Positions 42,264 through 57,220 of a stretch of 64,000 bases of DNA are shown here, piece after piece (the first letter of the stretch is position 1; each line of letters begins with the position of its first letter). Location: NCBI RefSeq assembly GCF_028368995.1, contig NZ_JAQNDL010000004.1, positions 691,882 through 755,881 of the forward strand, in the 5' to 3' direction. The translations under genes and the position numbers were made by a program. The DNA is from Nannocystis bainbridge. Lineage in GTDB: Bacteria; Myxococcota_A; Polyangia; Nannocystales; Nannocystaceae. The notes below the pieces were generated by a model. It searched no databases. It had not been told where the DNA came from and saw only the letters and a program-made list of their open reading frames with translations.

Positions 42264-42434
42264 GTCGCCCGTCGCCGCGGCGAACCGCTGTCCACTCGAA
42301 CGACAGCGGCTTTCACGGCGCCACGTGCGGGGGGCCGATGGTGTACCGCGTTAGTTCGACAGGGCGCCGTGCAGGTTGCCGCGGCATTGCCCCCGGCGGG
42401 TGACATCGCCCGCTGCGCGAGGTACCTTGAGCGT

Positions 42435-43523
42435 ATGCGCCGCCTCGCGCTCGCCACGCTCGCCGCTCTCGCCGCCTGCAACAATGGTGAGGGGCCAGGG
42501 CCAGGATTCGGCTCGAGCATCACGACTGCGCCGCAGGGCACAAGCTCGAGCGGTGACGCGTCGACGTCGACCTCGACGTCGACGTCCACCAGCTCGGCGG
42601 AGGACTCGGCCGCGGCGTCGAACAGCTCCGCCAGCTCGGCGGGCTCTGGCATTCCGGACGGCGGTACGCCGCCGGACGGCGGCGACAAGCCACCGGCAGG
42701 CTGCATGGGCAAGGTCGATCTCGTGTTCTCGATCAGCTCGCGGTGGACGATGAAGGGCGCGCAGGATTGGCTCAAAGCGAGCTTTCCGGGCTTCGTCGAC
42801 ACGCTCGAGACCGAATTCGCCGGCTTCGACTATCACATCCTCACACCTCGTCAGTATGGCCCGCCGTGGGGAATCCCGGGCTGTGAAGACTGCGTCGACA
42901 CCTGCCCGAGCGGGCCGGAGGACTATCCGTGCGGAGCAGTGCTCGAGCCGTGCGACACGGTGCAGGGCGCGGGGATCACCTTCTCCGCAGGGTGGGACGC
43001 GAGCAACAAGCGGTGCGACCTGTCGGGCGGACACCGTTACATCGGCGCGGGACAGGCTGATCTGGACGACGCCTTCGCGTGTGTGGCGTCTGTCGGCACG
43101 AGCGGTGGCGGGTTGGTTGCTGAAGCTGCCGTCAGCGCACTAGAGGACGAGATCAACGCGCCGGCCGGCTGCAACGCGGGCTTCCTCCGCGATGACGCGC
43201 TCCTCGTGGTCGTCGCCATCGATGACACATGGGACGAGAAGAGCGAGGGCACGGCGAAAGACTGGGCCGACGCCCTGGTCGAGGCCAAGGGCGGCGACGC
43301 GGACGCGGTGGTGCTGCTCGTGATCACGAACGACATCGACGATCCGGACGGTCTGTGCGGCTACGAAGGAGTCCCCCCCGGCTATCACAAGCTCCGCACC
43401 TGGACGGAGCTGCTTCCCCATTCAGTGTTCGGCTCGATCTGCAACGACCAAGGCTACGCCGAGTACTTCGCCGCCGCGGCCGCGAAGATCAAGGCGCAGT
43501 GCGACGTGTTCGTGCCGCAGTGA
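42435..43523 (+). CDS. Cys-rich lipoprotein with degenerate VWA-like domain
   Basis: LAAC lipobox, Ser/Thr linker, KVDLVFSISS (divergent MIDAS-like), CNAGFLRDDALLVVV. Confidence 0.7.
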   Translation: MRRLALATLAALAACNNGEGPGPGFGSSITTAPQGTSSSGDASTSTSTSTSTSSAEDSAAASNSSASSAGSGIPDGGTPPDGGDKPPAGCMGKVDLVFSISSRWTMKGAQDWLKASFPGFVDTLETEFAGFDYHILTPRQYGPPWGIPGCEDCVDTCPSGPEDYPCGAVLEPCDTVQGAGITFSAGWDASNKRCDLSGGHRYIGAGQADLDDAFACVASVGTSGGGLVAEAAVSALEDEINAPAGCNAGFLRDDALLVVVAIDDTWDEKSEGTAKDWADALVEAKGGDADAVVLLVITNDIDDPDGLCGYEGVPPGYHKLRTWTELLPHSVFGSICNDQGYAEYFAAAAAKIKAQCDVFVPQ

Positions 43524-43527
43524 GCGC

Positions 43528-45210
43528 CTACGGGTAGAGGCGCAACGCGAACGCCCGCGGTTGCAGGTCGGCGAATTCGCTCCCCACGATGGACACGTGA
43601 CCCCAGGGACCGACAGCGAGTCCCGCGGCGTCATCGGGGCCCTTGCCCGGCCCGTTGCGGACGACCTCCCAGACGTGCCCGCCGAGCGGGCCAGGGATGG
43701 CGAAGATCCACGCGTCCATGTCGGTGGCCGGCTGCTTGCGCGAGCCGGCGATGATGATCTTGCCCTCGCGGTCCTCGCCGATCGCGTAGCCGATCGCGTC
43801 GCTCCCCGGCGTGGGCTCGACCCGCACGGGCCCGGGTTCCCCCGCGGCCGAGAACCAGCGTGTGAGCACCTGGCGGATCGTGAACAGGTCGCGCCCCCAC
43901 CCGGTGATGACAAATCCACCTCCCCGCAGCGGCGCGACGGCCATCCCGCCGTCTTCCGCGAGCTGTTCGCCGGGCGACGTCCACTCGCCAAGCGCTTCGC
44001 CCGCGAGCGAGTACCGCAGCACGATCGTCCGCCGATAGATCTTGTTGAAGTCGCCAACGATCTCGCGCTCGCCGACGACGATGACCTCGTCACCGACGAT
44101 GGCCACGCCGCGGCCGATCTCGTCCAGCTTGTTCGGCGGGTCATCGGCGAGAGACGCGGCGAAAGGCGCCTCGTGAAGCAGCGCTCCGTCCTCGGCCGCC
44201 AGCCACCATACCCGGAGGTCATGCGTGCCAGGCGACACCTCGAGCGCGCCGACGACGATCACGAAGGGGCCCGCGACCGTGACCGCGAGCGCTTTAGTCT
44301 TGAGGTCGCCCGTCGCCTTCCACTCGAACGACAACGGATCGTCGAGCCACACCTTGGACAACGCCCACGTCGGCCCGAGTTGCGTGGACGCGACGAACAC
44401 CGCGCCGTCGTCGCTGGCGGCGATCGCCGGTCCGCTCCCCGCGGACGCGAGCGCGACCTTACCGAGCGCGACCGGCCCCGCCTCGAGCTTGCCCGTCGCC
44501 CCATCGATCTTCACCGCGACCGCCTCGAGCCCCTGTTGAGTCTCGTAGAAGCCCGCGGCAGCGATCGCCGCGTCGTCGAGCAGCGTCGCGCTCGTGAAGC
44601 CGTTGATCGGCCCGACCTGCACGTAGGGCGGCCAGACGTCGGTGCCGCCGGGCGCGACGTCGATCGTCAGGTCCTTCTCGGCTTGCCCGCTCACGCCGTC
44701 GGCGGCATGCGCGACAGCGCGGATCGTGTGCGTGCCGTCGCCGGGGACGTTGTCCGACGTCACCTCGAACACGCAGACCGGATCCCCCGGCGTCGCGCCG
44801 AGTGCGAGGGGCACGTCGCCGTCGAACACGTCGATCGTCGCGACCGGCCGCGACGTTGACACCGTGACCTGCACCTCGCCGACCTTGTCCACCGACGATG
44901 GCGACAGGAACACCTCCACGTTGACCGGCAGGGCCTTTCCGTCGTCGGTGGTGGTGCCGGTCGCGCCGTCGCTCTCAGTCCCGCCGTCGGTCACCGACGC
45001 GCTCACCGACGTCGCTTCACCGATCGTCGCGCTCGTGTCTGCGGTGCTGGCCATCGTGTCGGCCGTCGTGCTCGCCGGGCTCGGTTCGTCGGTGGTCGAT
45101 CCGCTGGCTCCGTCGCTGATGGGGTAACCCCCACCCTGCTGCAGGAGCTGATCGAAGTCTCCCGCGCAGGCGGCGAGGACGGCGACGGACAGGAGCGTGC
45201 GGCGGACCAT
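43528..45210 (-). CDS. Lipoprotein with Ig-like and beta-propeller-like domains
   Basis: VLAAC lipobox, Thr linker, DGTHTIRAVA Ig-like strand, repeated beta-rich blades. Confidence 0.7.
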   Translation of the reverse strand: MVRRTLLSVAVLAACAGDFDQLLQQGGGYPISDGASGSTTDEPSPASTTADTMASTADTSATIGEATSVSASVTDGGTESDGATGTTTDDGKALPVNVEVFLSPSSVDKVGEVQVTVSTSRPVATIDVFDGDVPLALGATPGDPVCVFEVTSDNVPGDGTHTIRAVAHAADGVSGQAEKDLTIDVAPGGTDVWPPYVQVGPINGFTSATLLDDAAIAAAGFYETQQGLEAVAVKIDGATGKLEAGPVALGKVALASAGSGPAIAASDDGAVFVASTQLGPTWALSKVWLDDPLSFEWKATGDLKTKALAVTVAGPFVIVVGALEVSPGTHDLRVWWLAAEDGALLHEAPFAASLADDPPNKLDEIGRGVAIVGDEVIVVGEREIVGDFNKIYRRTIVLRYSLAGEALGEWTSPGEQLAEDGGMAVAPLRGGGFVITGWGRDLFTIRQVLTRWFSAAGEPGPVRVEPTPGSDAIGYAIGEDREGKIIIAGSRKQPATDMDAWIFAIPGPLGGHVWEVVRNGPGKGPDDAAGLAVGPWGHVSIVGSEFADLQPRAFALRLYP

Positions 45211-45305
45211 CGTTGCGAAGGTACCACGCGCGGGTCCGCGCGCGAAGCCGGGGCGCGACGTCCAGGCGCGTTGACGACGTTCTATTTCTGCCAAGGGGGT
45301 AGACC

Positions 45306-46220
45306 CTAGAAGCGCCCGAAAAGCGAAAGGCCGGCGCCCTGGGGCCCGCCGTAGGGCGCAAGACGGGCCCGGTCCGTCGTCGGGCGCAGCTTGCCGCGGG
45401 CGACCATGCCGATGCCGACAGCCCCGAGCACCGCCGCCGAGATTGCGAGGCCGATCTTGGCGCCCCGCGTCCACGTCCCCACGGATCCGAGGTCGCTCAT
45501 GCGCTGCGCCTGCTCCGGGGTCCGATGGCCCGCCTGTTCAATCTCGGCGATCAACGTCTCGAGGTCATTGAACGCCCCGGCGCGGCGGACCTGCACGGGG
45601 ATGATGGCGAGGGCGGCGAGGGCGGCCGTGCCAAGCAGGACCCCGCCGGCGATCGTCAGGCCGTTGGCGCGCGGAGGCGTGCGGCCCGTCGTCGGCGCTG
45701 TCATCGCGGGCGAAGGTTCGCGCGCCTGCTCGGGTTCCGCCACGGGGCCGGGCTTCGGCTCGGATGTCGGCTGCACGCAAGGGGGCGCGACGAAGCGCGC
45801 GTCGCCGCGTGCGGCCGCTTCAGCGTGCGAGGCGAGGCCGGCGCGCGCTTCGTCGCGGAAGTCCGTCGCCTCGGGCGGCGGGGTGTCCGTGCGCGCGAGG
45901 ACCCGCTCCGCGGTGGCGAGTAGTTGGCACAGGTGCGCGGCGTCGTTCGTGCGCTGGTACGCGACGCGGCGGGCGGTCACGGCGAGCGTGAGCAGATCGC
46001 CGAGGTCCTTGACGTCGGACGTGTCCGCGAGTCTCGACTCCACCAACTCGGCAGCGGTGATGAGCCGCTCGAGCGGCGCGAGGTTGTCGGTGGTGATCGT
46101 CGGGTCGGCCGCCGTGATCTCGTCGTTGATCTCGGCGTTGGTCGCCGTGGGCGACAGCGGCGGCGCCGCCAGGGTGGGCCCCGCAAGGACGAGGGAGAGC
46201 AAGGCGGCGCGCGCGGGCAT
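45306..46220 (-). CDS. Secreted helical protein with C-terminal hydrophobic hairpin and terminal-Phe strand
   Basis: Signal peptide MPARAALLSLVLAG, two Gly-rich hydrophobic segments, ends GAGLSLFGRF. Confidence 0.7.
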   Translation of the reverse strand: MPARAALLSLVLAGPTLAAPPLSPTATNAEINDEITAADPTITTDNLAPLERLITAAELVESRLADTSDVKDLGDLLTLAVTARRVAYQRTNDAAHLCQLLATAERVLARTDTPPPEATDFRDEARAGLASHAEAAARGDARFVAPPCVQPTSEPKPGPVAEPEQAREPSPAMTAPTTGRTPPRANGLTIAGGVLLGTAALAALAIIPVQVRRAGAFNDLETLIAEIEQAGHRTPEQAQRMSDLGSVGTWTRGAKIGLAISAAVLGAVGIGMVARGKLRPTTDRARLAPYGGPQGAGLSLFGRF

Positions 46221-46398
46221 GGGTTCGTTGTACCACCACGCCGGCCGAACGTGCTCCCGGCGTGGGTTGAAAGGGGGAGGATCGCGGCGGAACGAGGGGG
46301 TGAAGCGCGGCCGGGTGTGGGACGAAACGGGCCTGAAAATGGCAGGAAAGGCATTTAGGCGGTCTTTCTCGCCTGGGGCTGTGGCACTCTTGGCGACG

Positions 46399-48939
46399 AT
46401 GGACAGCCCCCTCACTCCACGCTCCGGGCCCAGGCCGACGTGGCCCATCTACAAGGAAGTAGGCGCGGACTTCATCGGCGAGCTACTCGACGGGCGCTAC
46501 AAGATCGTCCGGCGGCTGGCGAAGGGCGGCATGGCCCACGTGTTCCTGGCCAAGGATCTCACGCGCAAGTGCTACGTCGCGATCAAGCTCCTGCGCGCGT
46601 GCAGCCCGGAGGCGCACCGCCGCTTTGCGGTCGAGGCGGAGATCCTGAGCAACATTCAGCACGAGAACATCGTGCGCGCGATCGCGTTCGGTCACACGGC
46701 CGACGAACAGCCCTACATCGCCCTCGAGCACCTCGACGGCGAGACCTCGTCGCAGCGCCTCTCGCTCGGCCCCCTCCCATGGCGCGAGGTGGCCGAGATC
46801 GGCATGCAGATTGCCGACGCGTTGCATTCTCTGCATCGCGTCGGCGTGATCCACCGCGACGTCAAGCCGGACAACATCATCCTGACGACCGGCGCAGATC
46901 GATGCGTGGCGAAGCTGATCGACCTCGGCCTGGCGAGCGTCGGTGTTCCGTTCCACGAGGCCCAGGACGCGCGCTTCACCCCGCCCGTGATCCGTCACAA
47001 GACCCAGCTCGGCCGGGCGATCGGCACTCCCGATTACCTTCCGCCGGAGGCAGGGCTCTGCGACGCCAATCCGCTCCTGGACGTGTACCTGCTCGGCGCC
47101 ACGCTCTACCAGCTCTGCACCCAGCTCCTGCCGAAGCTGACAGGGCTCCGGCCGATCCACGAGGTGAACCCAAGCAGCGAGGCGCCGGAGGACTTTTCGC
47201 GACTCCTCCGCTCGGCGCTCGAGCCTGAGCCGAGCGATCGGCTGCCGTCCGCGGATCACCTGCGCCGCGGGCTCGAGGCGATCCTCGCGGCGCACCCGCA
47301 AACGTCGCGCCGAGACCTGTTCGGCGGCAGCTTCGACCGCTTGGAGGTCATCGGCGTCGGCGCGAGCGCGGTGGTCTTCCGCGCCTCCGATCGTTGGCTG
47401 TCACGCGAGGTCGCGCTCAAGGTGCTGCGCGACGCGAAGCCGAGCGAGGACGACGCGATCCGCTTCCACCGCGCGGCGAAGATCCTGTCCGCGCTGCGGC
47501 ACCCGAACATCCCGCAGATCCACCACTATGGGATTGAGGGCCGGGAGGCGTTCACGATCACGGAGCTGTGCCCGGGCTCGCCGGCGACGGATGTCGCGGG
47601 TCCCGACAAGCACCTGCGCTCCGACGAGGTCATCGCGGTCGGCCGCCAGCTAGCGAGCGCACTCATGGCCGTGCATGCGGTCGACGTCGTGTACCGCGAC
47701 CTGCACGCGGGCAACGTCTTGATCGCACGCGGAGAGAAGCCGCAGGCGTGGATCTTCGACTTCGACCACGCGCAGGTGTCGCCCGCGTTCTACGCCCACC
47801 TGACGGAGCGGTGGGCGACGCCGCCGGAGGCGCGCGCGGAGCCCAAGAGCGAGAAGCCGCTTCGCAACATGGACTACGCGGCGCCGGAGGTTCGCAGCGG
47901 TGGGGCGTTCACCGTGGCGAGCGACGTGTTTGCGCTCGGACTGATGCTCTACCGCCTGCTCACGGGCTTGCGCCCGTTCCCGCCGGGCGGCAGCGAACCT
48001 GTACCAGCACGCAAAGTGTGTCCCGAGTGCCCGCCCGGCCTCGAGTCCTTGCTCATCGCCATGGTGAACCCGAGCCCGAGCGGCCGGCCCAACCTGCAGG
48101 CCGTGGAGGAAGCGCTCGCGGCGCAAGAGGAGGAGCTTGAAGCCGTCAAGCGCGAGGAAGCCGAGGCCGAGCAGGAAGCCGCAGCGGCCGCGCCGACCGT
48201 CCCAATCGCGCAGGTCGTGTTGAGCGCGACGCCGGAGAGCGCACCCGTTACGAGCGTTGACGCGGTCGAAAGGCCAACACCTTCGCAAGCGACTACCGCC
48301 GCCGCAGAAGCGCCGCCCGTCGACCTGCCGATCGGCACGTCGCGCGTGACTCCCATCGCCCGGCGCGGCGGCATGTGGGGGCTCCTCGCGCTGATTTTTG
48401 CGGTCGCGGTTGGCGTGGTCGTGGGGCGCGTGACCGCGCCCGGCGATATCGCGGTGCAGCTTGCCGGCGACATGCAGGGCACCCAGGCGCAGGTGATGCC
48501 GTCGCCGACGCCGCCGCGCACTTCGACCGACGACGGGCCGACCAAGCCAGCGACCGCCGAGGTCGCGCCGATGAAGTCGCCGCACGAGGGGACGCCGCCG
48601 AAACCAGCCCAGACGACCGACACGACCGGCAAGCGAACACCGCCGCTACGCCGCACACAGCCGTCGCCGCGTGGCGCGGTGACGACGGCAGAAGCGACCG
48701 CCGCAGCACAAGGCGCCGTGCAAGCGCTGCGCGGTTGCAAGGACGTCCCCGGCGCCATCACGGCCGACCTCGACGTCGTTCGGGGCAAGGGCGCCGTGGT
48801 CACGCTCAACGCCCGCGCGCCGGCTCCCGACGATCCGCGCTACCCCTGGCACGCCTGCGCCCGCGATGCACTCGAGCGCGTTCGCTTCCCGGTGAGCGAG
48901 ATCGTCGGGCGCGTGCGTGTTCGCCTCCCGCTCGAGTAA
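46399..48939 (+). CDS. Membrane Ser/Thr protein kinase with two tandem kinase domains
   Basis: Domain 1: KGGMAHV, VAIK, HRDVKPDN, DLG, GTPDYLPPE. Domain 2: GVGASAVV, VALK, YRDLHAGN, DFD, YAAPE, SDVFALG. TM segment WGLLALIFAVAVGVVVG. Confidence 0.92.
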   Translation: MDSPLTPRSGPRPTWPIYKEVGADFIGELLDGRYKIVRRLAKGGMAHVFLAKDLTRKCYVAIKLLRACSPEAHRRFAVEAEILSNIQHENIVRAIAFGHTADEQPYIALEHLDGETSSQRLSLGPLPWREVAEIGMQIADALHSLHRVGVIHRDVKPDNIILTTGADRCVAKLIDLGLASVGVPFHEAQDARFTPPVIRHKTQLGRAIGTPDYLPPEAGLCDANPLLDVYLLGATLYQLCTQLLPKLTGLRPIHEVNPSSEAPEDFSRLLRSALEPEPSDRLPSADHLRRGLEAILAAHPQTSRRDLFGGSFDRLEVIGVGASAVVFRASDRWLSREVALKVLRDAKPSEDDAIRFHRAAKILSALRHPNIPQIHHYGIEGREAFTITELCPGSPATDVAGPDKHLRSDEVIAVGRQLASALMAVHAVDVVYRDLHAGNVLIARGEKPQAWIFDFDHAQVSPAFYAHLTERWATPPEARAEPKSEKPLRNMDYAAPEVRSGGAFTVASDVFALGLMLYRLLTGLRPFPPGGSEPVPARKVCPECPPGLESLLIAMVNPSPSGRPNLQAVEEALAAQEEELEAVKREEAEAEQEAAAAAPTVPIAQVVLSATPESAPVTSVDAVERPTPSQATTAAAEAPPVDLPIGTSRVTPIARRGGMWGLLALIFAVAVGVVVGRVTAPGDIAVQLAGDMQGTQAQVMPSPTPPRTSTDDGPTKPATAEVAPMKSPHEGTPPKPAQTTDTTGKRTPPLRRTQPSPRGAVTTAEATAAAQGAVQALRGCKDVPGAITADLDVVRGKGAVVTLNARAPAPDDPRYPWHACARDALERVRFPVSEIVGRVRVRLPLE

Positions 48940-49017
48940 GCGCTCAAGAGCGCGTCTTGACGTAGCGGTCGTAGGCGATGCCCAAGGCGCCTGTTCGTCG
49001 GGTCGCAGAGGAGCAGG

Positions 49018-49920
49018 CTACGAGCGGCCCCGAGACTGCATGACGATGGCCGCAGCACCCGCGCCCGCAGCGACGCACGACACGCCGAACAGGAGCTTGC
49101 GGCCGAGACCCCAGTCCTTCCGGGCGGACAGCTCGGCGAGCTCGGCCTGATCCTGCACGTAAAGTCGCTCGAGCTCGCGGTTCGCCTGCTTCAGTCTGGC
49201 GATCTCGGCTTCATCTTCCGCCCGGAGACGCTCGAGCGCGGCGTTCAAGCCGCGCAGTCTTTCGAGCTCGGCGGCGCCGTCTGCGAGCCGCTTCTCGAGC
49301 GCGACGTTCATCTCGTGGAGCCGACTGATACGCTCAGTCAACTCGGCCGCGAGCGCCTCGGCCTTCGCTTGCGCCGCGCGCTCGGCCGCCGCTGACATCG
49401 TGGGTGTCGGGTTCGGGACGGCCCACAGGTGGCGTGCCCTCGTCTCCTGCTTCACGGCCTCCACTTCCTCAATGCCGACGACGATCGCCTGCTCGACCTC
49501 CGCATCCATGAAGCTGACGAGCCCGAATTCCTGCTCGGCGCCCAGCGTAGCGACGAGACGATCGAACGTCGCCAGCGTGGGGTTCGGGTCGGGGTCGTTG
49601 AGAAGGCTGCTGAGCTGAGAGCGGTTGATGCCGGAGACCTTGGCGAGCGCCGACACGGTCAGAATCTGCTCGCGCGCGATGATCTCTCTGATCCGCCCAA
49701 CGACTGCGGCAGGCTTGTTGACCTCGATACCATGGAAGCGAGCTCCGGCCTTGTGCACGAGTTCGAGGTAAAGCCCTAGCTTCGGGTTTGGCTCGGGCTG
49801 ATCGAACAACGCGAGCACGTGGGCGGAGTTGTGTTCCGAGCGCTCCGCGAGCTCTTGCTTCGTCAAGCCCGAACGTCGCAGCCATCCCTCTAACTCCCCG
49901 AACCACCGACGCGTGCTCAT
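49018..49920 (-). CDS. Tandem XRE-type HTH protein with coiled coil and C-terminal membrane anchor
   Basis: Two units (GLTKQELAERS..PNPKLGLYLEL and TVSALAKVSGINRSQLSSLL..PNPTLATFDRL), heptad region, tail LLFGVSCVAAGAGAAAIVM. Confidence 0.85.
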   Translation of the reverse strand: MSTRRWFGELEGWLRRSGLTKQELAERSEHNSAHVLALFDQPEPNPKLGLYLELVHKAGARFHGIEVNKPAAVVGRIREIIAREQILTVSALAKVSGINRSQLSSLLNDPDPNPTLATFDRLVATLGAEQEFGLVSFMDAEVEQAIVVGIEEVEAVKQETRARHLWAVPNPTPTMSAAAERAAQAKAEALAAELTERISRLHEMNVALEKRLADGAAELERLRGLNAALERLRAEDEAEIARLKQANRELERLYVQDQAELAELSARKDWGLGRKLLFGVSCVAAGAGAAAIVMQSRGRS

Positions 49921-49961
49921 AGTCGTCCATCGTACGGCCCAGGGCACGCCGGTCAAGCACC

Positions 49962-51935
49962 TGTTGCTCCGCGCGATCCAACACCGTTGGTCGCGCCGGA
50001 GCAACACCGACGGCCGCGCGCTCGCGCCGAGCAACATCGCCCGCCGGGGGAGCAACACCGACGGCCGCGCGTTCGCGCTGAGCGACAAACGGCCGGACGC
50101 TCGCGCGGAGCAACACCGCCTCGCCGGAGCAACACCGACGCGTGCTCGCGCCGAGCGACATCGCCTCGCCGGGAGCAACACCGACGGCCGGGTGCTCGCG
50201 CCTCGCCGGGAGCAACACCGACGGCCGGGCGTTCGCGTTGAGCAACATCGTCTCGCCGGAGCGCTCGTACATGGCCACCGCCGCGCGCAACGGGCCGACG
50301 AGGGCGGCGCACACAACGCTCGTGCATGGCCACCGCCGCGCGCAGCGGGCCGACGTGCGCGCCGGCGTCGTGCCCTATGGCGGCCCCTGCGGTGCCGGCC
50401 TCGGTCTGCACGGCAGCTTCCAGCTGTTGGCCCGAGGTATTGGCCGCCCCGGACGCTGTTGCTCCGCGGAGGGAGGTGTTGGCCGCGCGCGAGGCTGTTG
50501 CTCCGCGCGACGGCGGGGCCACGCCAGCGCGTGTGTTGCGGCCGGGGGCGTCGGTGAGATGTCAGCGAGGCGGAGGTGTTGGCCGCCGCGCAGGCTGTTG
50601 CGCCGCGCAGGGACTGTTGCCGCCGGATGTTTCGCCCGACAGCGGGGCCCGCCAGAACCAAACTAGCGACGGCCGACGTCGCGCCGAAGAAGATCGAGTC
50701 GCCGCACGAGGGCGCACGGCCGAAACCAACCGACGCGACGTGCAAGCGAATCGGGAAGACGCCGTCGAGGCGCCAAAGCGCCTGCATAGACGTCCCGGGC
50801 GCTACCACGGCCGACCTCGACGTCGTTCGCTCGGCGCGCGTGGGGTCGCCGACTGTTGCTCGGGGCGCGGCACGAGGTGTTGCTCGATGCGCGGGGTGTT
50901 GATTGTGGTGTTGCTCGGCGCGCCGGAGGTGTTGTTCGGCGCGCGGGTGAACGCCGGCTGTTGCTAGCGATGCTGCTCGGCGCGCGGTGTTGCTCGCGGT
51001 GTTGCTCGGCGCGTGGGGGGGCTCGGTGCGGGTGCTCGCCGGCTGTTGCTCGGCGCACAGATCGACGCGCGGTGTTGCTCGGGCGCGCGGCATTGTTCTG
51101 CGCGGGTGCTCGCCGGCTGTTGCTCGCCGGGCTGCTGGCGCGAGGTGTCTCTCCGTGCGGGCGTTACTCGGCGCAGCTCGGGCCGGGGTGTTGTTCGCGG
51201 CGTTGCTCGGTGCCCGGGGTGTTGCTCGCGGTGTTGCTCGGCGCGCGGGTGTTGTTCGGCGCGCGGGTGTTCGCCCGGCTGTCGCTCGCCGCGCAGCTCG
51301 GCGCGCGGGTGTTGCTCGCGGTGTTGTTCAGGCGCGCGGCGTTGCTCGGGGCGCGGGCGATCGGCGGCCACTCGCCGCGCAGCTCAGCGCGCGAGGTATT
51401 GCTCGGCGTGTGGGTGTTGCCCGCCACGCAGCTTGGGTCGAGGTGTTGCTCGGGGCGCGGGGCGTTGCTCGGGGCGCGGGCGACCGCCGGCTGTTGCTCA
51501 GCGCGCTGCTCGGCGCGCGGGTGAGCGTCGGCTGCCGTTCGGCGCGCAGCTCAGCGCACGGGTTGTTGTCTGCGGCGTTGCTCGGAGCACGCGGGTGTTG
51601 CTCGGCGCGCGGGTGATCGCCGGGTGTCGCTCGGCGCGCGGGTGTTGCTCGGCGCGCGGGTGTTGCTCGGCGTGTGCGGGGTGTTGCTCGTCCCCCTAAA
51701 TTTGGGCTAGACAAGGTCCCTCAACCACATTCCGCGCTTATCGTGGCCCATATTTATTGCTTATTTCATGAGTCGAAATATGGTCGAAAGGCCAGGCCGA
51801 GCGCAGCTTGCCGAAGATCGCCGGAGCGGAACAACGCGCTCGGGATAGCTCGGTGGAGCAACACCCTGCACGCGAACACGCGCCGAGCAATACTGCACGC
51901 GCGTCGAGTAACAGCCGCGCGCGGAACAACGGCAC
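49962..51935. repeat. Array of dozens of TGTTGCTC(G)/GAGCAACA motifs in three orientation blocks
   Basis: About 10 GAGCRACA at 49999-50247. Roughly 40 TGTTGCTCG-like copies at 50420-51691, with the 18-bp unit GGTGTTGCTCGGCGCGCG near the end. About 5 reversed degenerate copies at 51826-51935. Counts made by eye. Confidence 0.9.
50657..50829 (+). pseudogene. Degenerate duplicate of the kinase 3' region (48541-48782)
   Basis: TKLATADVAP..SPHEG..DVPGATTADLDVVR; 24-bp identity between 50806-50829 and 48759-48782. Confidence 0.85.
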
Positions 51936-52036
51936 GCGCGCCTTGCACCCCGCACGCCTCCCTGTCGTCACCCCCTGTTGTGCCGTCGGACGAACAGCCC
52001 TTGTCGGCCGCCCGGCCCGGCCTATGCTCGTGCTCC

Positions 52037-53029
52037 ATGGGAACGCGGCGATGGTTCATGGACCTGGACGCATGGATGCGCCGGGCGGGTTTGAGTAAGG
52101 AGGCGGTAGCGAGAACGTCTGGGCACAAGACAGCGCACGTGCTGGCGCTGTTCGACGAACCGGACCCGAACCCTTCGCTGCGTCTCTACCTCGATCTGGT
52201 CCAGGCGGCCGGCGCCCAGCTAATCGGGGTGCGGGACAACACGCCCCGCGCCGTGATCGAGCGTCTCGCGAGTATCACCCGCGAGAACGAGATCACGATG
52301 TCCGCGCTCGCACGCGCTTCGAATGTTAACCGGCCGCAGCTCAGCACCCTGTTCAACGACCCCGAGCCGAACCCGAAGCTGGCGATTATCGATCGCATCG
52401 TTGTTGCCCTGGAGGCCGAACGGGACTTGGGACTCATGGGAGCAGCTCCGGACGCGAATGAAGTCGAGAGCGACGAGGACGACGACGACGACAGCCAGGA
52501 GAATGAGGACGGCGACGCGGACGATGATGGCCAGGAGAACGAGGACGGCGACGAGGACGACCGGGACGAGGACGGCCAGGACGACGAGGACGACGAGGGC
52601 GACGGCGCCGGCGGGGACGACGACCAGGACGACGAGGACGACGGCTACGCCGACGACGACGGCCAGGACGACGAGGACGACGGCGGCGGGGACGACGACG
52701 GCCGGGGCGACGAGGACGACGGCGACGCCGACGACGACGCCCAGGACGACGAGGACGACAGCGACGCGGACGGCCAGGATGACGAGGACGACGACGAGGA
52801 CGAGGACGGCGGCGAGGATGAGCTCGACGAAAGCCGCGGCGGCGGTTTCGAGATTTCGGTGCAGGTGCTTAGCGAGCAGAATCTGGCCTTGCAGCGACAG
52901 GCTCTGATCGACGAAGTCGAGATTCGCGCGCTGAAGAAGCGAAGCCGCTGGAACGCGTTTAAGGTGGTCGCTGGCGCTGTTCTCGGTGCCGGCGTCGCGG
53001 CTGCTGTGCTGAAGCGTCGCAAGGAGTAG
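52037..53029 (+). CDS. Tandem XRE-type HTH protein with long Asp/Glu tract, short coiled coil and C-terminal membrane anchor
   Basis: MGTRRWF.. paralog of 49018-49920; ~120-aa D/E/G low-complexity tract; tail VVAGAVLGAGVAAAVLKRRKE. Confidence 0.85.
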   Translation: MGTRRWFMDLDAWMRRAGLSKEAVARTSGHKTAHVLALFDEPDPNPSLRLYLDLVQAAGAQLIGVRDNTPRAVIERLASITRENEITMSALARASNVNRPQLSTLFNDPEPNPKLAIIDRIVVALEAERDLGLMGAAPDANEVESDEDDDDDSQENEDGDADDDGQENEDGDEDDRDEDGQDDEDDEGDGAGGDDDQDDEDDGYADDDGQDDEDDGGGDDDGRGDEDDGDADDDAQDDEDDSDADGQDDEDDDEDEDGGEDELDESRGGGFEISVQVLSEQNLALQRQALIDEVEIRALKKRSRWNAFKVVAGAVLGAGVAAAVLKRRKE

Positions 53030-53098
53030 TAGGCAGCATCGGGTCTAACGACGACGCCCGTGACGAGGTCATGGGGGCATCGTCGCGGGCGGGGTCAG

Positions 53099-54715
53099 CT
53101 ACACCGAGGCCGTGGCCTCGACCGCCGTGGCATCGATCGCGCCCATGCTCTGCCGCTGCTTGGCGCGCGGGGGCCGGCGGGCTGGCTCCCGCCCGACCTC
53201 GGCCGGCGGCAGGTCCATGGCCGCGGCGATGTGTTCCCAGGTGCCATCACTGCACCATCGCTCATACCAGCGCCACGACGTTGTGGCCGCGCCGTGCTCC
53301 TTCGGTAACTCGCTCCACTTCGCGCCGGTGTGTAGGACCCAGCGGATCGCGTCGACCGTGCGGCGGAGATCGGTGCGGGGTCCACCGCAGCGCCCCCGGG
53401 TGCCCTCGACCATCGCCGCGATCCGGCTCCACTGCGCATCACTCATCGACACGAAGGGGGCCGGCGGGGTCGGCGGGAGCGCGGCGATCGGCTGTGCTGC
53501 TTCCACGATCCGGTCGGTCGCGGTCTCGAGCGCCTGGCGCAGGTAATCGTCCGCGAGGTGCGTGTAGCGCTTGGTGGTCCGGTCTTGCTTGTGGCCGAGC
53601 AACTTCCCGACCGTGCTGAGTGTCGCGCCACTCATGAGCGCGTCGCTGGCGAACGAGTGCCGGAGGTCATGCAACCGGACGTCGGGGATCCCGGCGGCCT
53701 TGCGGATGTTGTCCCAGGTGTGATTGATGCCGCGCAGACGTTTGCCGTTCCGTGTGCACAGCACGTACCCCGTGCGCGGGTTGCCGGCTTGATCGTGGAT
53801 ATGCTTCAGGAGACCCAGCACGCGGCTGGAGACGGGTACCTTGAGCTGTCCGGTCTTGGTGTCCGGCAGGTTCAGGAGCGAGTGTTGCCAGTCGACCATG
53901 GCCCATGTGAGCGTGAGGATCTCATCGCGCCGACGCCCAGTGAGCGCGAGCAGATCGATCGCCCACACGCTCACCAGCTTGAGGTGGCCCTTGCGTGGGG
54001 CGGGGATCTTGAGGCCCGCGAGGATCACCGCTTGCACGCGCTGTCGCTCCTCCGGAGTCAGGAAGCGCTCGCGCTCCGGGATGGTGAAGTGCCGGATCTT
54101 GTGCGCCGGGTTGCGGATATCGGCGAGCTCCCAGTCCTCCGTGATCCGCGTGTACAGGCTGCTGATCACGCAGAGCATGAGGTTCGCCGCGCCGGGCCGA
54201 TCCTTCATCGCGGTGTGAAGCTCGGCTACTTCTGCCTTGGTGATGCTCCGGTAGTTGCGATCCCCGAGCTTCGGCACGATCACCGTCTCGAGCGCGTGCT
54301 TGTAGTTCACGGCGGTACCTGCCTTAAGGTGCGCGTCGACGTGCGTGCGGATGAATCGCTTGGCGAGCTCACGAATCGTGTCCGCCTCGCACGGCGACGA
54401 TTCCACCTGTTTCAGACGAGCGCGCTTGCCCGCGGCCGCACGGCCGGAATGTACAGTGTCGCCCGGCTCGTTCGCGTCCGCGGCTGCGTTAGTGAGCATG
54501 ACAGCCGCCCGTCGCCGCGCCTCGTCAATCGACAGAGTGGGTCCGAGCAGTCCGATTTTCTGGCGGTGATCCTTGCCGTCCACTCGGAAGCGAACCAGCG
54601 CGACTTTCTTCCCCGTGGGCAGGACCCGCAGCAGGAAGCCCGGCAGGGCATCGCAGGTTACTTCGTACATCTTCGCGCGAGGCTTGCAGTCGCGCACGAA
54701 CGCAGCAGTGATCAT
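53099..54715 (-). CDS. Tyrosine integrase (arm-binding, core-binding and catalytic domains) with C-terminal DUF4096-like domain
   Basis: PGFLLRV..GKK..IG arm-binding domain; catalytic TGRRRDEI, DTKTG, HDLRH, LLGH and TKRY; tail MSDAQWSRI..DLRRTVDAIRWVLHTGAKWSELP..RWCSDGTW. Confidence 0.92.
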   Translation of the reverse strand: MITAAFVRDCKPRAKMYEVTCDALPGFLLRVLPTGKKVALVRFRVDGKDHRQKIGLLGPTLSIDEARRRAAVMLTNAAADANEPGDTVHSGRAAAGKRARLKQVESSPCEADTIRELAKRFIRTHVDAHLKAGTAVNYKHALETVIVPKLGDRNYRSITKAEVAELHTAMKDRPGAANLMLCVISSLYTRITEDWELADIRNPAHKIRHFTIPERERFLTPEERQRVQAVILAGLKIPAPRKGHLKLVSVWAIDLLALTGRRRDEILTLTWAMVDWQHSLLNLPDTKTGQLKVPVSSRVLGLLKHIHDQAGNPRTGYVLCTRNGKRLRGINHTWDNIRKAAGIPDVRLHDLRHSFASDALMSGATLSTVGKLLGHKQDRTTKRYTHLADDYLRQALETATDRIVEAAQPIAALPPTPPAPFVSMSDAQWSRIAAMVEGTRGRCGGPRTDLRRTVDAIRWVLHTGAKWSELPKEHGAATTSWRWYERWCSDGTWEHIAAAMDLPPAEVGREPARRPPRAKQRQSMGAIDATAVEATASV

Positions 54716-54738
54716 GAACCCCTACCTTCCACCTCTAG

Positions 54739-54853
54739 TTTTCGAGACAAAATCGGGCCAAGCAAGCGGCCCACGGGACCTGTCCGAAAGTGCACAATCT
54801 GGCGCGCAGCGCCGCGCAGAGCGGTTTCAGGACATAGGTACCATATTGGTGAT
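54739..54853. other. Element right end (att core and arm-type site)
   Basis: TTTTCGAGACAAAATCG at 54739 matches the left-end motifs; core TTGGTGAT at 54846-54853 within CATAT-TGGTG-ATATG. Confidence 0.85.
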
Positions 54854-56911
54854 ATGATAAGTGTGCTGATTCCACACGCGGCGGGTGCGGACCCACGAGC
54901 CGTTGGCGCTGCCGAAGATCCGGATGCCGGACTGGCGGGTGTTGTTGTCGGGGCAGGTGACGCCGTAGGCGTTGCTGGCGACGACGATGTCGGCCTGGCC
55001 GTCGTTGTCGACGTCGGCCACCAGCGGGTACTCCCACAGGGTGCCGGTGGTGTTGCAGGTGCTCGGGATCAGGTTGGTGCCGGTCTGACCGTCGTACATC
55101 CAGAGGTGGTACTCGTCGGAGTAGATGACCTCGGCCTTGCCGTCGCCGTTGAAGTCGAACACCGACGAGCCGGTCACCGCGGACGAGCAATCGTGGGTGG
55201 TCTTGAACCACAGGTCGATGTCGCTGTTGGCGACGGCGGGGTCCATCATCAGCTTGCCGCTGAAGACGATGTAGCCGACGGCCCCGGCGGCGCCGACGTC
55301 GGGCACGCCGTCGCCGTCGAAGTCGGCGACGGTCGGCGGGCCGCCGCCGTACTCGTTGGCGGCGTTGCAGAACACCTTGGTCGAGATGCCGTCGTTGATG
55401 TCGACGCCCTTGCGCAGCACCTGGGCGCCGTCGGGGCTGTTCATGTCGTAGCGCACGACTTGCATGGTGTGCGGGCCGCCGCTCGAGATGATGACGACCT
55501 CGGGCTGGCCGTCGAGGTCGAAGTCGCCGACGCCGTGGTAGCCGCCGACGATGGCGTTGGGGCCGCTGCGCAGGTCCCACAGGATGTCGCCGTCGGCCCG
55601 GTAGGCGCGCTGGCCGTCGGTGACGTCGAGGAAGCCGTCGCCGTCGAGGTCGCTGAGGCCAGTGAGGCGCTGCCCCCAGCTGGTGGCCGGATCGAGCTCG
55701 GTCTTGACGGCGCCGGTGGCCCCGTCGAGGAGGGTGAAGCCGACGAGGACCTCGGGCACGCCGTCCTGATCGACGTCGCCGATCGCCGGCGCCTGGTTGC
55801 CGCAGTGGACCTTGGTGGTGTCAGGCTGGGTCCAGAGGGTGGTGCCGTCGGCGTTGAAGGCGATGACGCCGGTGTTCTGGGCGACCGCGTCGCAGCACGA
55901 GACGCCAGCCGGGCCAGGGTTCATGCAGCCGACGATCTCGGGCACGCCGTCGCCGGTGAGGTCGGCTGCCGCGAGGCCACCACCAGGCTGGACGACGTTG
56001 GGCACGCTGAACTTCTCGACGAGCTGGCCGCCGACGACGGAGACGGCGTGGAGGGTGCCCTGCTTGAAGTAGGCGCCGCCGCTGAAGGTGCTGAAGACGA
56101 TCTCGGGGATGTCCTTCTCGTTGACCTTGCCGTCGCAGTCGTCGTCGTCGAGGTTGATGACGATCGGCGACATCATGACGTCGCTGGCATACGGCGGGGT
56201 GACCTGGCCGCCCCAGGCGTGCTTGAGGACGATGCCGAAGTCCTGGACCGGCGGGACGACCTCGCATTTGGGGAGGCAGGTGATCGGCTCGCCCTCCATC
56301 GGCTCGACGCCGTCGGGGCACTCGGGCGGCTGCGGGAGGCACTTGCCGCCGTCGAGCGAGACGCCGCCCATGCACATGGGCGGCTGCTCGGCCTCGCCGA
56401 GGGTATATTCACAGTAGAAGCCGTCAGGGCAATCGGTGGCATCGACGCAGTCGTCGCCGGGGACGACGCACTCCTGGAAGGAGCAGACCTCGCCGAGGCC
56501 GCAGCAGGTGTCGGTGCAGGCCTGGTTGATCGGGCAGCAGGTCTGGCCGACGCAGACGCCGTCCTCGCAGGTGTCGGCGCAGGCGGGGCCCATGTCGGGG
56601 CCGGGGCCGGTGGAGGCGCCCATGGTGGTGTCGGTGACCGTCGCTTCGCCGGAGTCGGTGGTCGGGCCGCTGGCGGCCGTGGTGCCGAGAGTGTCGCCGG
56701 CGGTGCCGGCGGTGTCGGGGCCGCCGGTGGTCGGCGGGACATTGCTGGTACCACCAGTGGTGGGGCCGGTGGTGAGGCCGCCGCTCGCTTCGGTGGCGCT
56801 GGCCCCCGCGGAGTCGGTGCCCGCGCCGCCGTTGTCGCCGCACGCGGCCAGCAAGAACATCGCCCCCATCCGCAGCGCGTGGCGCTGCGAGACCCTCGAA
56901 TTCCTAGGCAT
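54827..56911 (-). pseudogene. 5' part of the interrupted FG-GAP lipoprotein gene (could still make a truncated ~694-aa protein)
   Basis: LLAAC lipobox and FG-GAP repeats collinear with 5410-7767 up to WNQHTYHITN, then MVPMS* read from element DNA. Confidence 0.92.
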
Positions 56912-57220
56912 GCGCCACGAGAGCACGAACCCGCGGCGAGCCGCAAGCGCCGGCGATCGCGGCCGTGCGACTGGGCGCAGGTGCACGCGCGCCGAGGCAG
57001 GGCGGGCCCGCGAGGGGCGGGGCGGTTCCTGTCTGATGGGACAGCCTGTCCCGCATCCGCGGAGCGGGGCGGGATCGACCGCGGCGCGCGGGTTCGTGGT
57101 CCAGGGTGGCACTCACGACGACGCGCAAGCGGCTGCACGCCGTCCAGCGCCGACGCCGCGCCGGAGCGACGGTCGTGGATCAACCTGGCCTTCGGGCCAT
57201 GTGTCACGAATGGCTGGGTT

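Follow-up and report, generated by a model that had tools for sequence, protein, structure and literature searches.

One-protein DNA-membrane tethers, namely, RocS, RicO, and the Par protein of plasmid pSK1, have to date been described in Firmicutes, and their mechanism is still considered open (PMC11500499). RocS of Streptococcus pneumoniae combines a DNA-binding domain with a coiled coil and a membrane anchor and has been proposed as a DNA-membrane tether; its DNA-binding domain is phosphorylated by the Ser/Thr kinase StkP, mimicking of this phosphorylation abrogated DNA binding, and a phosphomimetic change at the StkP target T41 affects the RocS-DNA interaction (PMC11500499). The same text describes Par of the Staphylococcus aureus plasmid pSK1 as a protein with a helix-turn-helix (HTH), a coiled coil, and a C-terminal membrane-type helix, which binds specific repeats and works with no nucleoside triphosphatase (NTPase), and RacA of Bacillus subtilis as an HTH and coiled-coil protein which binds repeated centromere-like sequences and fixes the DNA at the envelope via DivIVA (PMC11500499). 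In the RicO/ricS system of S. aureus, the N-terminal domain of RicO is reported to read a motif and its C-terminal helix to bind the membrane, the protein thereby bridging the two (bioRxiv 10.64898/2026.03.06.710092). Here, we describe a chromosomal locus of Nannocystis bainbridge (genome of 11.05 Mb, 71.5% G+C) in which two divergent genes, A and B, encode tandem-HTH proteins with hydrophobic C-terminal tails and enclose a dense array of short repeats. The stretch analyzed, referred to as the window, comprises the last 64 kb (64,000 nucleotides) of contig C4, and positions are those of the window unless a contig or another locus is named. The association between the A-type gene and its array was found to be specific and recurrent.

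RocS, RicO, pSK1 Par, and RacA are the closest analogues of this system, and they are not homologous to it. RocS resembles protein A in its N-terminal HTH and central coiled coil, its oligomerization and C-terminal anchor have predicted counterparts in A, and the Ser/Thr kinase control of RocS has a counterpart in the conserved kinase neighbor of the present locus. RocS differs, however, in possessing a single MerR-type winged HTH (wHTH), DUF536, and an amphipathic helix, whereas a tandem XRE-type HTH and a transmembrane-like tail are present here; an adjacent cognate repeat array is not mentioned for RocS in the text available, and a firmicute protein is being compared with a myxobacterial one. 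pSK1 Par is similarly a single-protein, NTPase-free arrangement of HTH, coiled coil, and membrane-type helix with specific repeats on the DNA that it positions, but it is plasmid borne and has a MerR-type wHTH and DUF536, whereas the present system is chromosomal, with up to approximately 50 units and a second, acidic paralog. On pSK1, the gene for Par is itself preceded by these repeats, of which there are fewer than ten. RicO combines an N-terminal motif reader with a C-terminal membrane element, as is predicted here, but has origin-proximal sites and an amphipathic helix, in contrast to the single dense array beside the gene and the hydrophobic tail seen here; RacA is likewise an HTH and coiled-coil protein on repeated centromere-like sites but relies on DivIVA for anchoring and has dispersed sites and a MerR-type fold, whereas a membrane segment of its own is predicted for the present protein. 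In ParR/parC and omega-type arrays, short direct or inverted repeats upstream of the binder gene serve as both centromere and operator, and the binders are ribbon-helix-helix dimers working with an NTPase (ParM or ParA). The upstream position of a short-repeat array is common to these systems and the present one, but a Pfam scan of 21 window proteins between 35.6 and 63.9 kb turned up no ParA, ParM, or TubZ domain and no Rep, relaxase, or phage structural domain; with respect to ParA, Rep, relaxase, and phage structural genes, this agrees with the reading first made of this DNA without database searches (here, the sequence-only reading).

Membership in the RocS/pSK1 Par family was considered for proteins A and B and rejected: their HTH is not a MerR-type wHTH, DUF536 was not among the Pfam matches of either protein at an E value of ≤1 (HMMER filters drop most weak matches), and their tails are uniformly hydrophobic and not MinD-like amphipathic helices, although the central coiled coil of that family is present in A, B having just a short helix. 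No match to RicO emerged from general searches, none of which was a homology test aimed at RicO. The sequence-only reading, which recognized no described counterpart of the architecture, must be amended in that functional, nonhomologous analogues do exist.

Proteins A and B and the array between them

The two genes (Table 1) are transcribed divergently, A from the minus and B from the plus strand, with 2,116 bp between them, and their products share 55% identity across the first 135 residues (E value, 5e-51), as expected of the divergent paralogs that they had been taken for. Two XRE-like HTH units had been attributed to each protein. AlphaFold2 modeling of the first 140 residues (15-sequence alignment; mean predicted local distance difference test score [pLDDT], 90.7) produced two successive four-helix units with a short strand after each, in line with that attribution. 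In Pfam, the second unit alone matches by sequence (protein A residues 76 to 127, HTH_3 at 29.8 bits with a cut-off of 23 and HTH_26 at 28.3 bits with a cut-off of 22; protein B, HTH_26 at 23.1 bits with the same cut-off of 22), the first being recognizable by its fold and by a repeated F-x-x-P-(D/E)-P-N-P-x-L signature. Profile matches in the PDB comprised Lp1 protein 11, CylR2, HipB, and SinR, and the best Foldseek matches in the PDB were SinR and HipB, which are single XRE domains (TM-score on the query, 0.32 to 0.38); no template with a tandem HTH was retrieved from the PDB by Foldseek, and the top ESM Atlas score (0.78) was under the usable level.

Protein A is predicted to form one continuous helix from residue 177 to 295 (pLDDT of approximately 83 to 93 over residues 181 to 260) with heptad-like LERLRAED repeats, such that the spacer and coiled coil of the sequence-only reading are retained for A; in B, their place is taken by an acidic linker and a short helix. 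The top hydrophobic 19-residue window, which is Gly/Ala rich, has a mean Kyte-Doolittle (KD) value of 2.14 in A and 2.05 in B and stops 6 and 5 residues, respectively, short of the C-terminus, where the mostly basic ends listed in Table 1 follow, exactly the kind of tail first described. As judged by hydropathy, this would be the single C-terminal hydrophobic segment of a tail-anchored protein, the N-terminus being the HTH domain itself, and membrane anchoring through it is likely. Complex prediction with the C-terminal parts of A and B, run without controls, gave a score of 0.02, which is not evidence either way. MYXO-CTERM, a Cys-containing C-terminal sorting signal of secreted proteins, was considered as an explanation of the tail and rejected: no NCBIfam sorting-domain match was obtained at an E value of ≤1, the N-terminus is not signal peptide-like, and the tail Cys is absent from B-type and several A-type members.

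The exact motif TGTTGCTC occurs 32 times in the window, compared with 1.02 occurrences expected and a maximum of 4 in 100 shuffles, and 29 of the 32 copies fall between 49962 and 51863. When one mismatch is allowed, 48 sites are present between 49900 and 52060 (22 per kb) versus 56 over the remaining 61.8 kb (0.9 per kb), which agrees with the approximately 50 copies in orientation-switching blocks originally noted. The array extends over approximately 2.1 kb and is composite and noncoding; coding potential was rejected, there being no open reading frame (ORF) with convincing codon-position GC and the periods (12, 18, 29 to 30, 41, and so on) not being multiples of three, and Rfam returned no match at the gathering score in 48900 to 53100. 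The unit length is 18 to 22 bp and the mode of same-strand spacing 19 to 22 bp, which fits the occupation of each unit by one tandem HTH; further spacing peaks near 29 to 30, 39 to 41, 49 to 51, and 59 to 60 bp would put the sites roughly on one face of the helix, a weak point since tandem copies are not independent. The remnant of the neighboring kinase gene within the array (Table 1) indicates that the latter was built from at least two pieces. At the protein level, this remnant has an internal deletion.

The motif is not a genome-wide repeat. The genome of N. bainbridge contains 318 exact TGTTGCTC copies in 11 Mb (control 8-mers range from 45 to 1,196), and its density peaks at two A-type loci only, the richest 2-kb bins being those of the present locus (24 and 5 copies) and of a locus on contig C2 (11, 9, and 4 copies). 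The latter (L014; C2, 2.864 to 2.872 Mb) encodes a 75% identical A paralog and displays the same layout of promoter and proximal site, with blocks of both polarities. At L014 7372-7786 and 11943-13459, this second array shows seven perfect 59-bp tandem units with three motif-like elements each and an IS3-family insertion between its blocks. A third motif cluster, at approximately 1.172 to 1.173 Mb of C2 (L015 8257-8407), was discounted as unrelated to the array: its five GGTTGTTGCTCGCGG copies fall within the gene for an 1870-amino-acid protein, where they encode repeats of a low-complexity linker, and the clustering is thus coincidental. We take this protein, read by eye at about C2 1.173 Mb, to resemble a polyketide synthase at its N-terminus. 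An isolated fragment at C2:1118536-1118757 (L016, approximately 6536 to 6757), corresponding to the end of the A coiled coil plus the tail (86 to 91% protein identity), is a pseudogene remnant of a third locus; the adjoining gene presumably encodes a LysR-type regulator, as judged by eye from its N-terminus.

Array motif and recognition helix vary together

A word-indexed protein search recovered 55 proteins at an E value of ≤1e-3, mostly from short contigs, and a hidden Markov model search with the N-terminal profile recovered 46 representatives of 50%-identity clusters at ≤1e-30 and 120 at ≤1e-10. Among whole genomes, 14 of 73 in the order (3 of 17 genera) contained a match, the present genome included, as opposed to 0 of 400 other sampled Myxococcota genomes at an E value of 1e-10 (10 candidates scored per genome; 4 genomes of the family). 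Searches by tblastn of 72,556 plasmid and 50,697 phage records were likewise without a match. By these searches, the family is confined to Nannocystaceae. A description of it was not found in literature searches on Nannocystis HTH proteins with repeats and on tail-anchored HTH proteins, supplementary files lying outside their coverage. The closest homologue of gene A belongs to Nannocystis punicea, and related loci occur in N. punicea, Nannocystis pusilla, and metagenome-assembled genomes (MAGs) of Nannocystis and other Nannocystaceae. Four soil or rhizosphere metagenome runs contained 5 to 9% of the sampled words, and no RNA run was among those listed.

Family members conserve an architecture in which a tandem HTH is followed by a coiled coil and a hydrophobic tail that ends in basic residues. 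In a strict tail test (19 residues with a KD value of ≥1.6, ending ≤12 residues from the C-terminus), 37 of the 57 family proteins passed, most of the remaining tails being the same conserved tail at a lower score (internal Arg) or belonging to truncated proteins. Among distant tandem-HTH representatives, such a tail was present in 20 of 60, with other architectures also represented. In P0084, P0086, P0090, P0091, and P0097, the tandem-HTH module stands at the C-terminus, after a Cys-rich N-terminal extension, and in the long forms P0070, P0081, P0082, and P0094 it stands at the N-terminus of proteins of 550 to 675 residues with a different conserved C-terminal end. Two subtypes may be distinguished, the A type with its long coiled coil and the B type with an acidic linker (P0002, P0055/56, P0062, P0071, P0080, and the product of L068:5913-6800). 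The order at metagenome locus L068 is array, A-type gene, B-type gene, and convergent integrase gene, and the A/B pairing is therefore not peculiar to the window.

Loci of up to 20 kb around the genomic homologues were compared together with 15 metagenome contigs, a homologue search of the kind proposed alongside the sequence-only reading. The array count takes in the 21 A-type loci whose upstream sequence reaches 400 nt or more. Not counted were L069, which duplicates L068; L062, for which only 147 nt precede the gene; L052 and L053, both truncated by a contig end; and the two B-type entries. The distant members L043 to L049 were treated separately. At 19 of the 21 loci, 3 to 33 copies of one motif class lie within 2.2 kb upstream of the gene, noncognate classes being represented by 0 or 1 copy at every locus but L063 (4 copies). 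The two exceptions are N. punicea, which carries a deletion, and L039, whose array is 3′ of the gene. The motif covaries with the second recognition helix: NRSQLS accompanies TGTTG(C/G)(T/C)C (window, L014, L039, L040, L051, L061, and L063 to L065), (T/A)RP(Q/M/H)LS accompanies GAACATGT, of the palindromic CGAACATGT(T/C)CG type (L041, L050, and L066 to L072), and QRSHLS accompanies (C)GTGCACGAGCG (L042, of N. pusilla). L074 and L075 have GAACATGT-type arrays; as their contigs end before the second HTH, they were placed in that class solely on the similarity of their first helix. In the TGTTG class, the motif's second half (GCTC, GGCC, or GGTC) varies together with the first helix. Distant members have other short-unit arrays upstream in three of the four cases examined (L043, L047, and L048), consisting of 22-bp-spaced GCACGCCGTGTC, 11-bp AAGTCGCGG units, and 9/13-bp ACACGCCCGAC units, the fourth having a single 22-bp duplication. 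As additional observations, the GAACATGT-type array of a Nannocystaceae MAG contains an (CACCCCTC)n microsatellite that passes into a poly-C tract (L041 11179-11360), and a second repeat type, AATAAGGGTC with its complement in approximately eight copies, lies within an AT-rich patch that separates the N. pusilla array from its HTH gene (L042 9160-9350).

Clade-wise agreement alone would be a weak argument, because an adjacent array is inherited with its gene; the argument rests instead on arrays that persist while their motif changes. The N. pusilla locus illustrates this. Its DNA is 91% identical to the window over 42333 to 48981 (to 40 nt past the kinase stop codon) and 81% identical over 53161 to 54874 (the integrase), and between these flanks it has an HTH protein 43% identical to A, a 1.2-kb array of its own, and no B gene. 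Otherwise, the DNA of note shared in this interval comprises the two relic units at 50261 to 50355 and an 86-nt, 79% identical stretch in the HTH coding regions. A QRSHLS-type protein cognate to these relic units was not found in the genome of N. bainbridge with protein A as the query. The conserved flanks and the different HTH gene and array suggest that protein and array were replaced as one cassette, an exchange that speaks for recognition of the array by the A-type protein beside it. With arrays found next to A-type genes across the family and a motif that tracks the recognition helix, sequence-specific binding of the adjacent array by the A-type protein is predicted with good confidence.

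In N. punicea, a 95% identical A is retained together with its promoter and proximal site, and a clean 5.45-kb deletion (L038 9717/9718) corresponding to window positions 50006 to 55457, with 2-nt microhomology, has eliminated B, the integrase, and the bulk of the array and has cut the FG-GAP gene short at its 3′ end. That N. punicea lost its array and kept the gene would fit an explanation by which only the promoter-proximal sites are functional and the large arrays are neutral minisatellites grown from operators by unequal recombination, as would the perfect 59-bp tandem copies of L014, the widely varying copy number, and the relics and pseudogene fragments inside the array. We consider this explanation improbable, because separate lineages have large arrays built on different motifs (approximately 40 units at L039; 24, 25, and 31 exact copies at L061, L068, and L075, respectively) and because the core motif is kept across the diverged units of an array, which suggests selection on the sites.

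Table 1. Features of the Nannocystis bainbridge locus (window positions)
Feature	Position	Strand	Remarks
Ser/Thr kinase gene with two kinase domains	46399..48939	+	Convergent with gene A; conserved family neighbor
Gene A (A type), 300 amino acids, MSTRRWF...	49018..49920	-	HTH residues 1-135, linker, coiled coil of ~100 residues, hydrophobic tail ending QSRGRS
Sigma-70-like promoter of gene A (TTGACC, 16 nt, TACGAT)	49929..49956	-	Ends 8 nt before ATG; consensus match only; same layout at L014
Promoter-proximal motif copy	49962..49969	+	5 nt from the -35 hexamer; kept in N. punicea without the remaining array
Array block I, 10 motif copies	49999..50247	-	Orientation as gene A
Relic, two copies of the 55-bp N. 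pusilla repeat unit	50262..50364		Contain the N. pusilla motif (A/G)TG(C/T)ACGAGCG, GTGCACGAGCG-type
Array block II, GGTGTTGGCC copies alternating with GCTGTTGC(T/G)C copies	50433..50625	+	Includes TGTTGGCC variants
Degenerate copy of the neighboring kinase gene 3′ end (48570-48782)	50692..50829	+	79-87% identical; inside array
Array block III, 31 copies (≤1 mismatch) of unit GGTGTTGCTCGGCGCGCG	50854..51689	+	Orientation as gene B; spacings mostly 12, 18-21, 29-31 bp
AT-rich patch	~51700-51800		Between blocks III and IV
Array block IV, 3 copies	51856..51913	-	Opposite orientation
Element ...CGGACGAACAGnnCTTGTC...	51971..52006	+	Conserved upstream of all three B-type genes compared
Gene B (B type), 330 amino acids, MGTRRWF...	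52037..53029	+	Tandem HTH, 130-residue Asp/Glu-rich linker, short helix, tail ending KRRKE
Tyrosine integrase gene (arm-binding, SAM-like, and catalytic domains) with IS5-type DUF4096 fragment by read-through	53099..54715	-	Convergent with gene B
FG-GAP repeat protein gene	54827..57112	-	Upstream of integrase; order common to L014, L051, and L052

Integrase, neighboring genes, and promoter context

The gene next to B, correctly recognized as an integrase gene from the outset, encodes a protein matching PF00589 (E value, 4e-25), Arm-DNA-bind_3 (1.5e-6), PHROG 1 (6.5e-62), and, at residues 424 to 496, DUF4096 (4.8e-20). The fusion to the insertion sequence (IS) fragment is old, given that the junction region can be aligned to the N. 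pusilla locus; the integrase of that species looks frameshifted, its match consisting of two overlapping pieces. The repeats might be regarded as substrates or arm-type sites of this tyrosine recombinase, used in the manner of a shufflon or integron, with the orientation blocks arising as inversions; the array does adjoin an integrase with an arm-binding domain, and its blocks do have opposite polarity. This possibility is highly improbable. The window integrase is 66 to 78% identical to that of N. pusilla although the two arrays have unrelated motifs, which argues that the integrase is not the array reader, while that of L051 is only 55% identical and yet has the same motif for a neighbor; no integrase lies within 10 kb of the arrays at L039 and L041; and the units are far shorter and more numerous than known recombination sites.

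The sequence-only reading had placed the array in the service of an excised circle or mobile element. Such a centromere-like maintenance or partition device, in which integrase, HTH protein, and array keep the excised circle of an integrative element at the membrane for retention or transfer, would account for the integrase gene being convergent with the HTH gene at the window (B) and at eight further loci (L014, L050 to L052, L062, L064, L065, and L068) and for HTH gene and array acting as an exchangeable cassette. However, replication, transfer, and NTPase genes were not found near the locus in the Pfam scan, the integrase-side junction has no att-type direct repeat within the window, arrays without a nearby integrase exist, and plasmid and phage homologues were not detected in the records searched. 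The locus is, moreover, syntenic across three Nannocystis species, and the integrase appears to be decaying, being IS-fused here, frameshifted looking in N. pusilla, and deleted in N. punicea. A role in retaining an excised mobile element is thus not supported, and a device of this kind is, in our assessment, of low probability. A tRNA/att site was also rejected, given that the window contains no tRNA gene in addition to lacking the junction repeat, as was a replication origin or terminus: the GC-skew turn at approximately 50 kb is only local, the skew of contig C4 is positive throughout, dnaA is located elsewhere, and the distance between locus and dnaA is inconsistent in two related genomes.

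All-against-all comparison of the called proteins identified the tyrosine integrase, the FG-GAP protein, the Ser/Thr kinase, and three proteins designated X1 to X3 as recurrent neighbors. X1 (272 residues), X2 (560 residues, apparently secreted), and X3 (approximately 310 to 370 residues, with a C-terminal hydrophobic segment) are without Pfam matches; with the dual kinase, they form a conserved cluster adjoining the HTH gene (window 42705 to 46415; also L038, L042, L043, and L046 to L048). PADLOC assigned no family to A, B, the integrase, X1 to X3, or a neighbor of 250 residues and gave generic kinase matches only for the kinase, and PHROGs returned nothing specific for the locus proteins beyond that of the integrase. 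The wider flanks contain ordinary chromosomal genes, namely, those for extracytoplasmic function sigma factors, a transporter, a methyltransferase, and a porin-like protein.

On the basis of its position, the motif copy at 49962 is likely an autoregulatory operator of gene A, while the element preceding B may represent an operator or leader of B-type genes, as suggested by the three sequences compared. These features bear upon the main rival explanation, according to which the proteins are membrane-bound one-component transcription factors that control their own genes and the neighboring operons (kinase and X1 to X3), perhaps under the control of phosphorylation, the arrays being slippage-expanded operators and the presence of DNA at the membrane a side effect. 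Membrane-bound regulators comparable in principle are BcrR, ToxR, and CadC. In its favor are the motif copy 5 nt from the gene A -35 hexamer at both paralogous loci, which is also the sole copy kept in N. punicea; the array of L039, which adjoins an AT-rich promoter region in front of an operon comprising a small ORF and a kinase gene; distant members with just 2 to 9 units directly upstream of the gene; the conserved neighborhood of a dual Ser/Thr kinase and three genes of unassigned function; and an HTH of the XRE repressor type. Nevertheless, 30 to 50 sites over 1 to 2 kb far exceed what promoter control needs, most of them lie hundreds of bases away from promoter-like sequence, and a simple repressor requires neither a 100-residue coiled coil nor a membrane tail. 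We therefore regard this explanation as somewhat unlikely, although regulatory and tethering roles may coexist, as they do in plasmid centromeres.

Proposed role at the membrane

Our favored, if tentative, reading is that an array-bound, oligomeric, tail-anchored A-type protein holds a chromosomal stretch at the membrane, a proposal which falls just short of being probable as a whole. One tandem-HTH module would act as a built-in pseudo-dimer occupying one 18- to 22-bp unit, and its binding to the copy beside the gene A -35 hexamer would also confer autoregulation. The A-type protein is presumed to oligomerize via its long coiled coil and to be seated in the inner membrane via its C-terminal tail, such that dozens of bound copies would create a multivalent protein-DNA patch by which this part of the chromosome is kept at the membrane. 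The principle would be that put forward for RocS, RicO, pSK1 Par, and RacA/DivIVA, realized here with unrelated components. Modulation of binding by the acidic B-type partner and the neighboring Ser/Thr kinase, comparable to the action of StkP on RocS, is speculative, the kinase link being an analogy. DNA tethering as the physiological role of the system is conceivable but somewhat doubtful.

Several findings weigh against this proposal. One subgroup of the family has an Arg within the hydrophobic stretch and a tail score below 1.6. The array of L039, with approximately 40 GGTGTTGGCC units, lies 3′ of the gene and adjoins the promoter region of the kinase operon. Array size ranges from 2 to approximately 50 units, and the perfect recent tandem duplications, the IS3 insertion, and the relics are what fast neutral turnover would be expected to produce. 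The number of independent motif switches is small (three close classes and a few distant ones), and many of the metagenome loci are close kin. The deletion in N. punicea indicates that the large array, B, and the integrase are dispensable for keeping A. Finally, the recognition helix of B stays much alike whatever the type of the neighboring array, so that B, which belongs to a separate conserved subtype, probably has a different target and may not read the array. Of the two HTH proteins which the sequence-only reading had envisaged as coating the array, the A type is thus supported by the comparative evidence, whereas B does not behave as a simple second array binder.

A more elaborate version, in which exchangeable cassettes (TGTTGCTC, GAACATGT, GTGCACGAGCG, and others) keep parallel tethers orthogonal within a Nannocystaceae-specific attachment system and B and the dual kinase switch attachment on and off, is rather unlikely. 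Irrespective of this, the system would lend itself to experiment, as its sites are gathered in one dense array beside the gene, at least three natural protein/motif pairs are available, and the anchor resembles a true membrane segment; the pairs of tandem-HTH protein and array could also serve as orthogonal operator-repressor tools in GC-rich bacteria. Should the regulator explanation alone hold, the A-type protein would still stand out among XRE regulators for its attachment to the membrane and for the great size of its operator arrays. If the tethering proposal is correct, the myxobacteria concerned, with genomes of 11 to 13 Mb, would possess a lineage-restricted, nonhomologous analogue of the single-protein DNA-membrane tethers, with exchangeable specificity and with cognate arrays that are unusually large and change rapidly, as an independently evolved Gram-negative counterpart of RocS, RicO, and Par.

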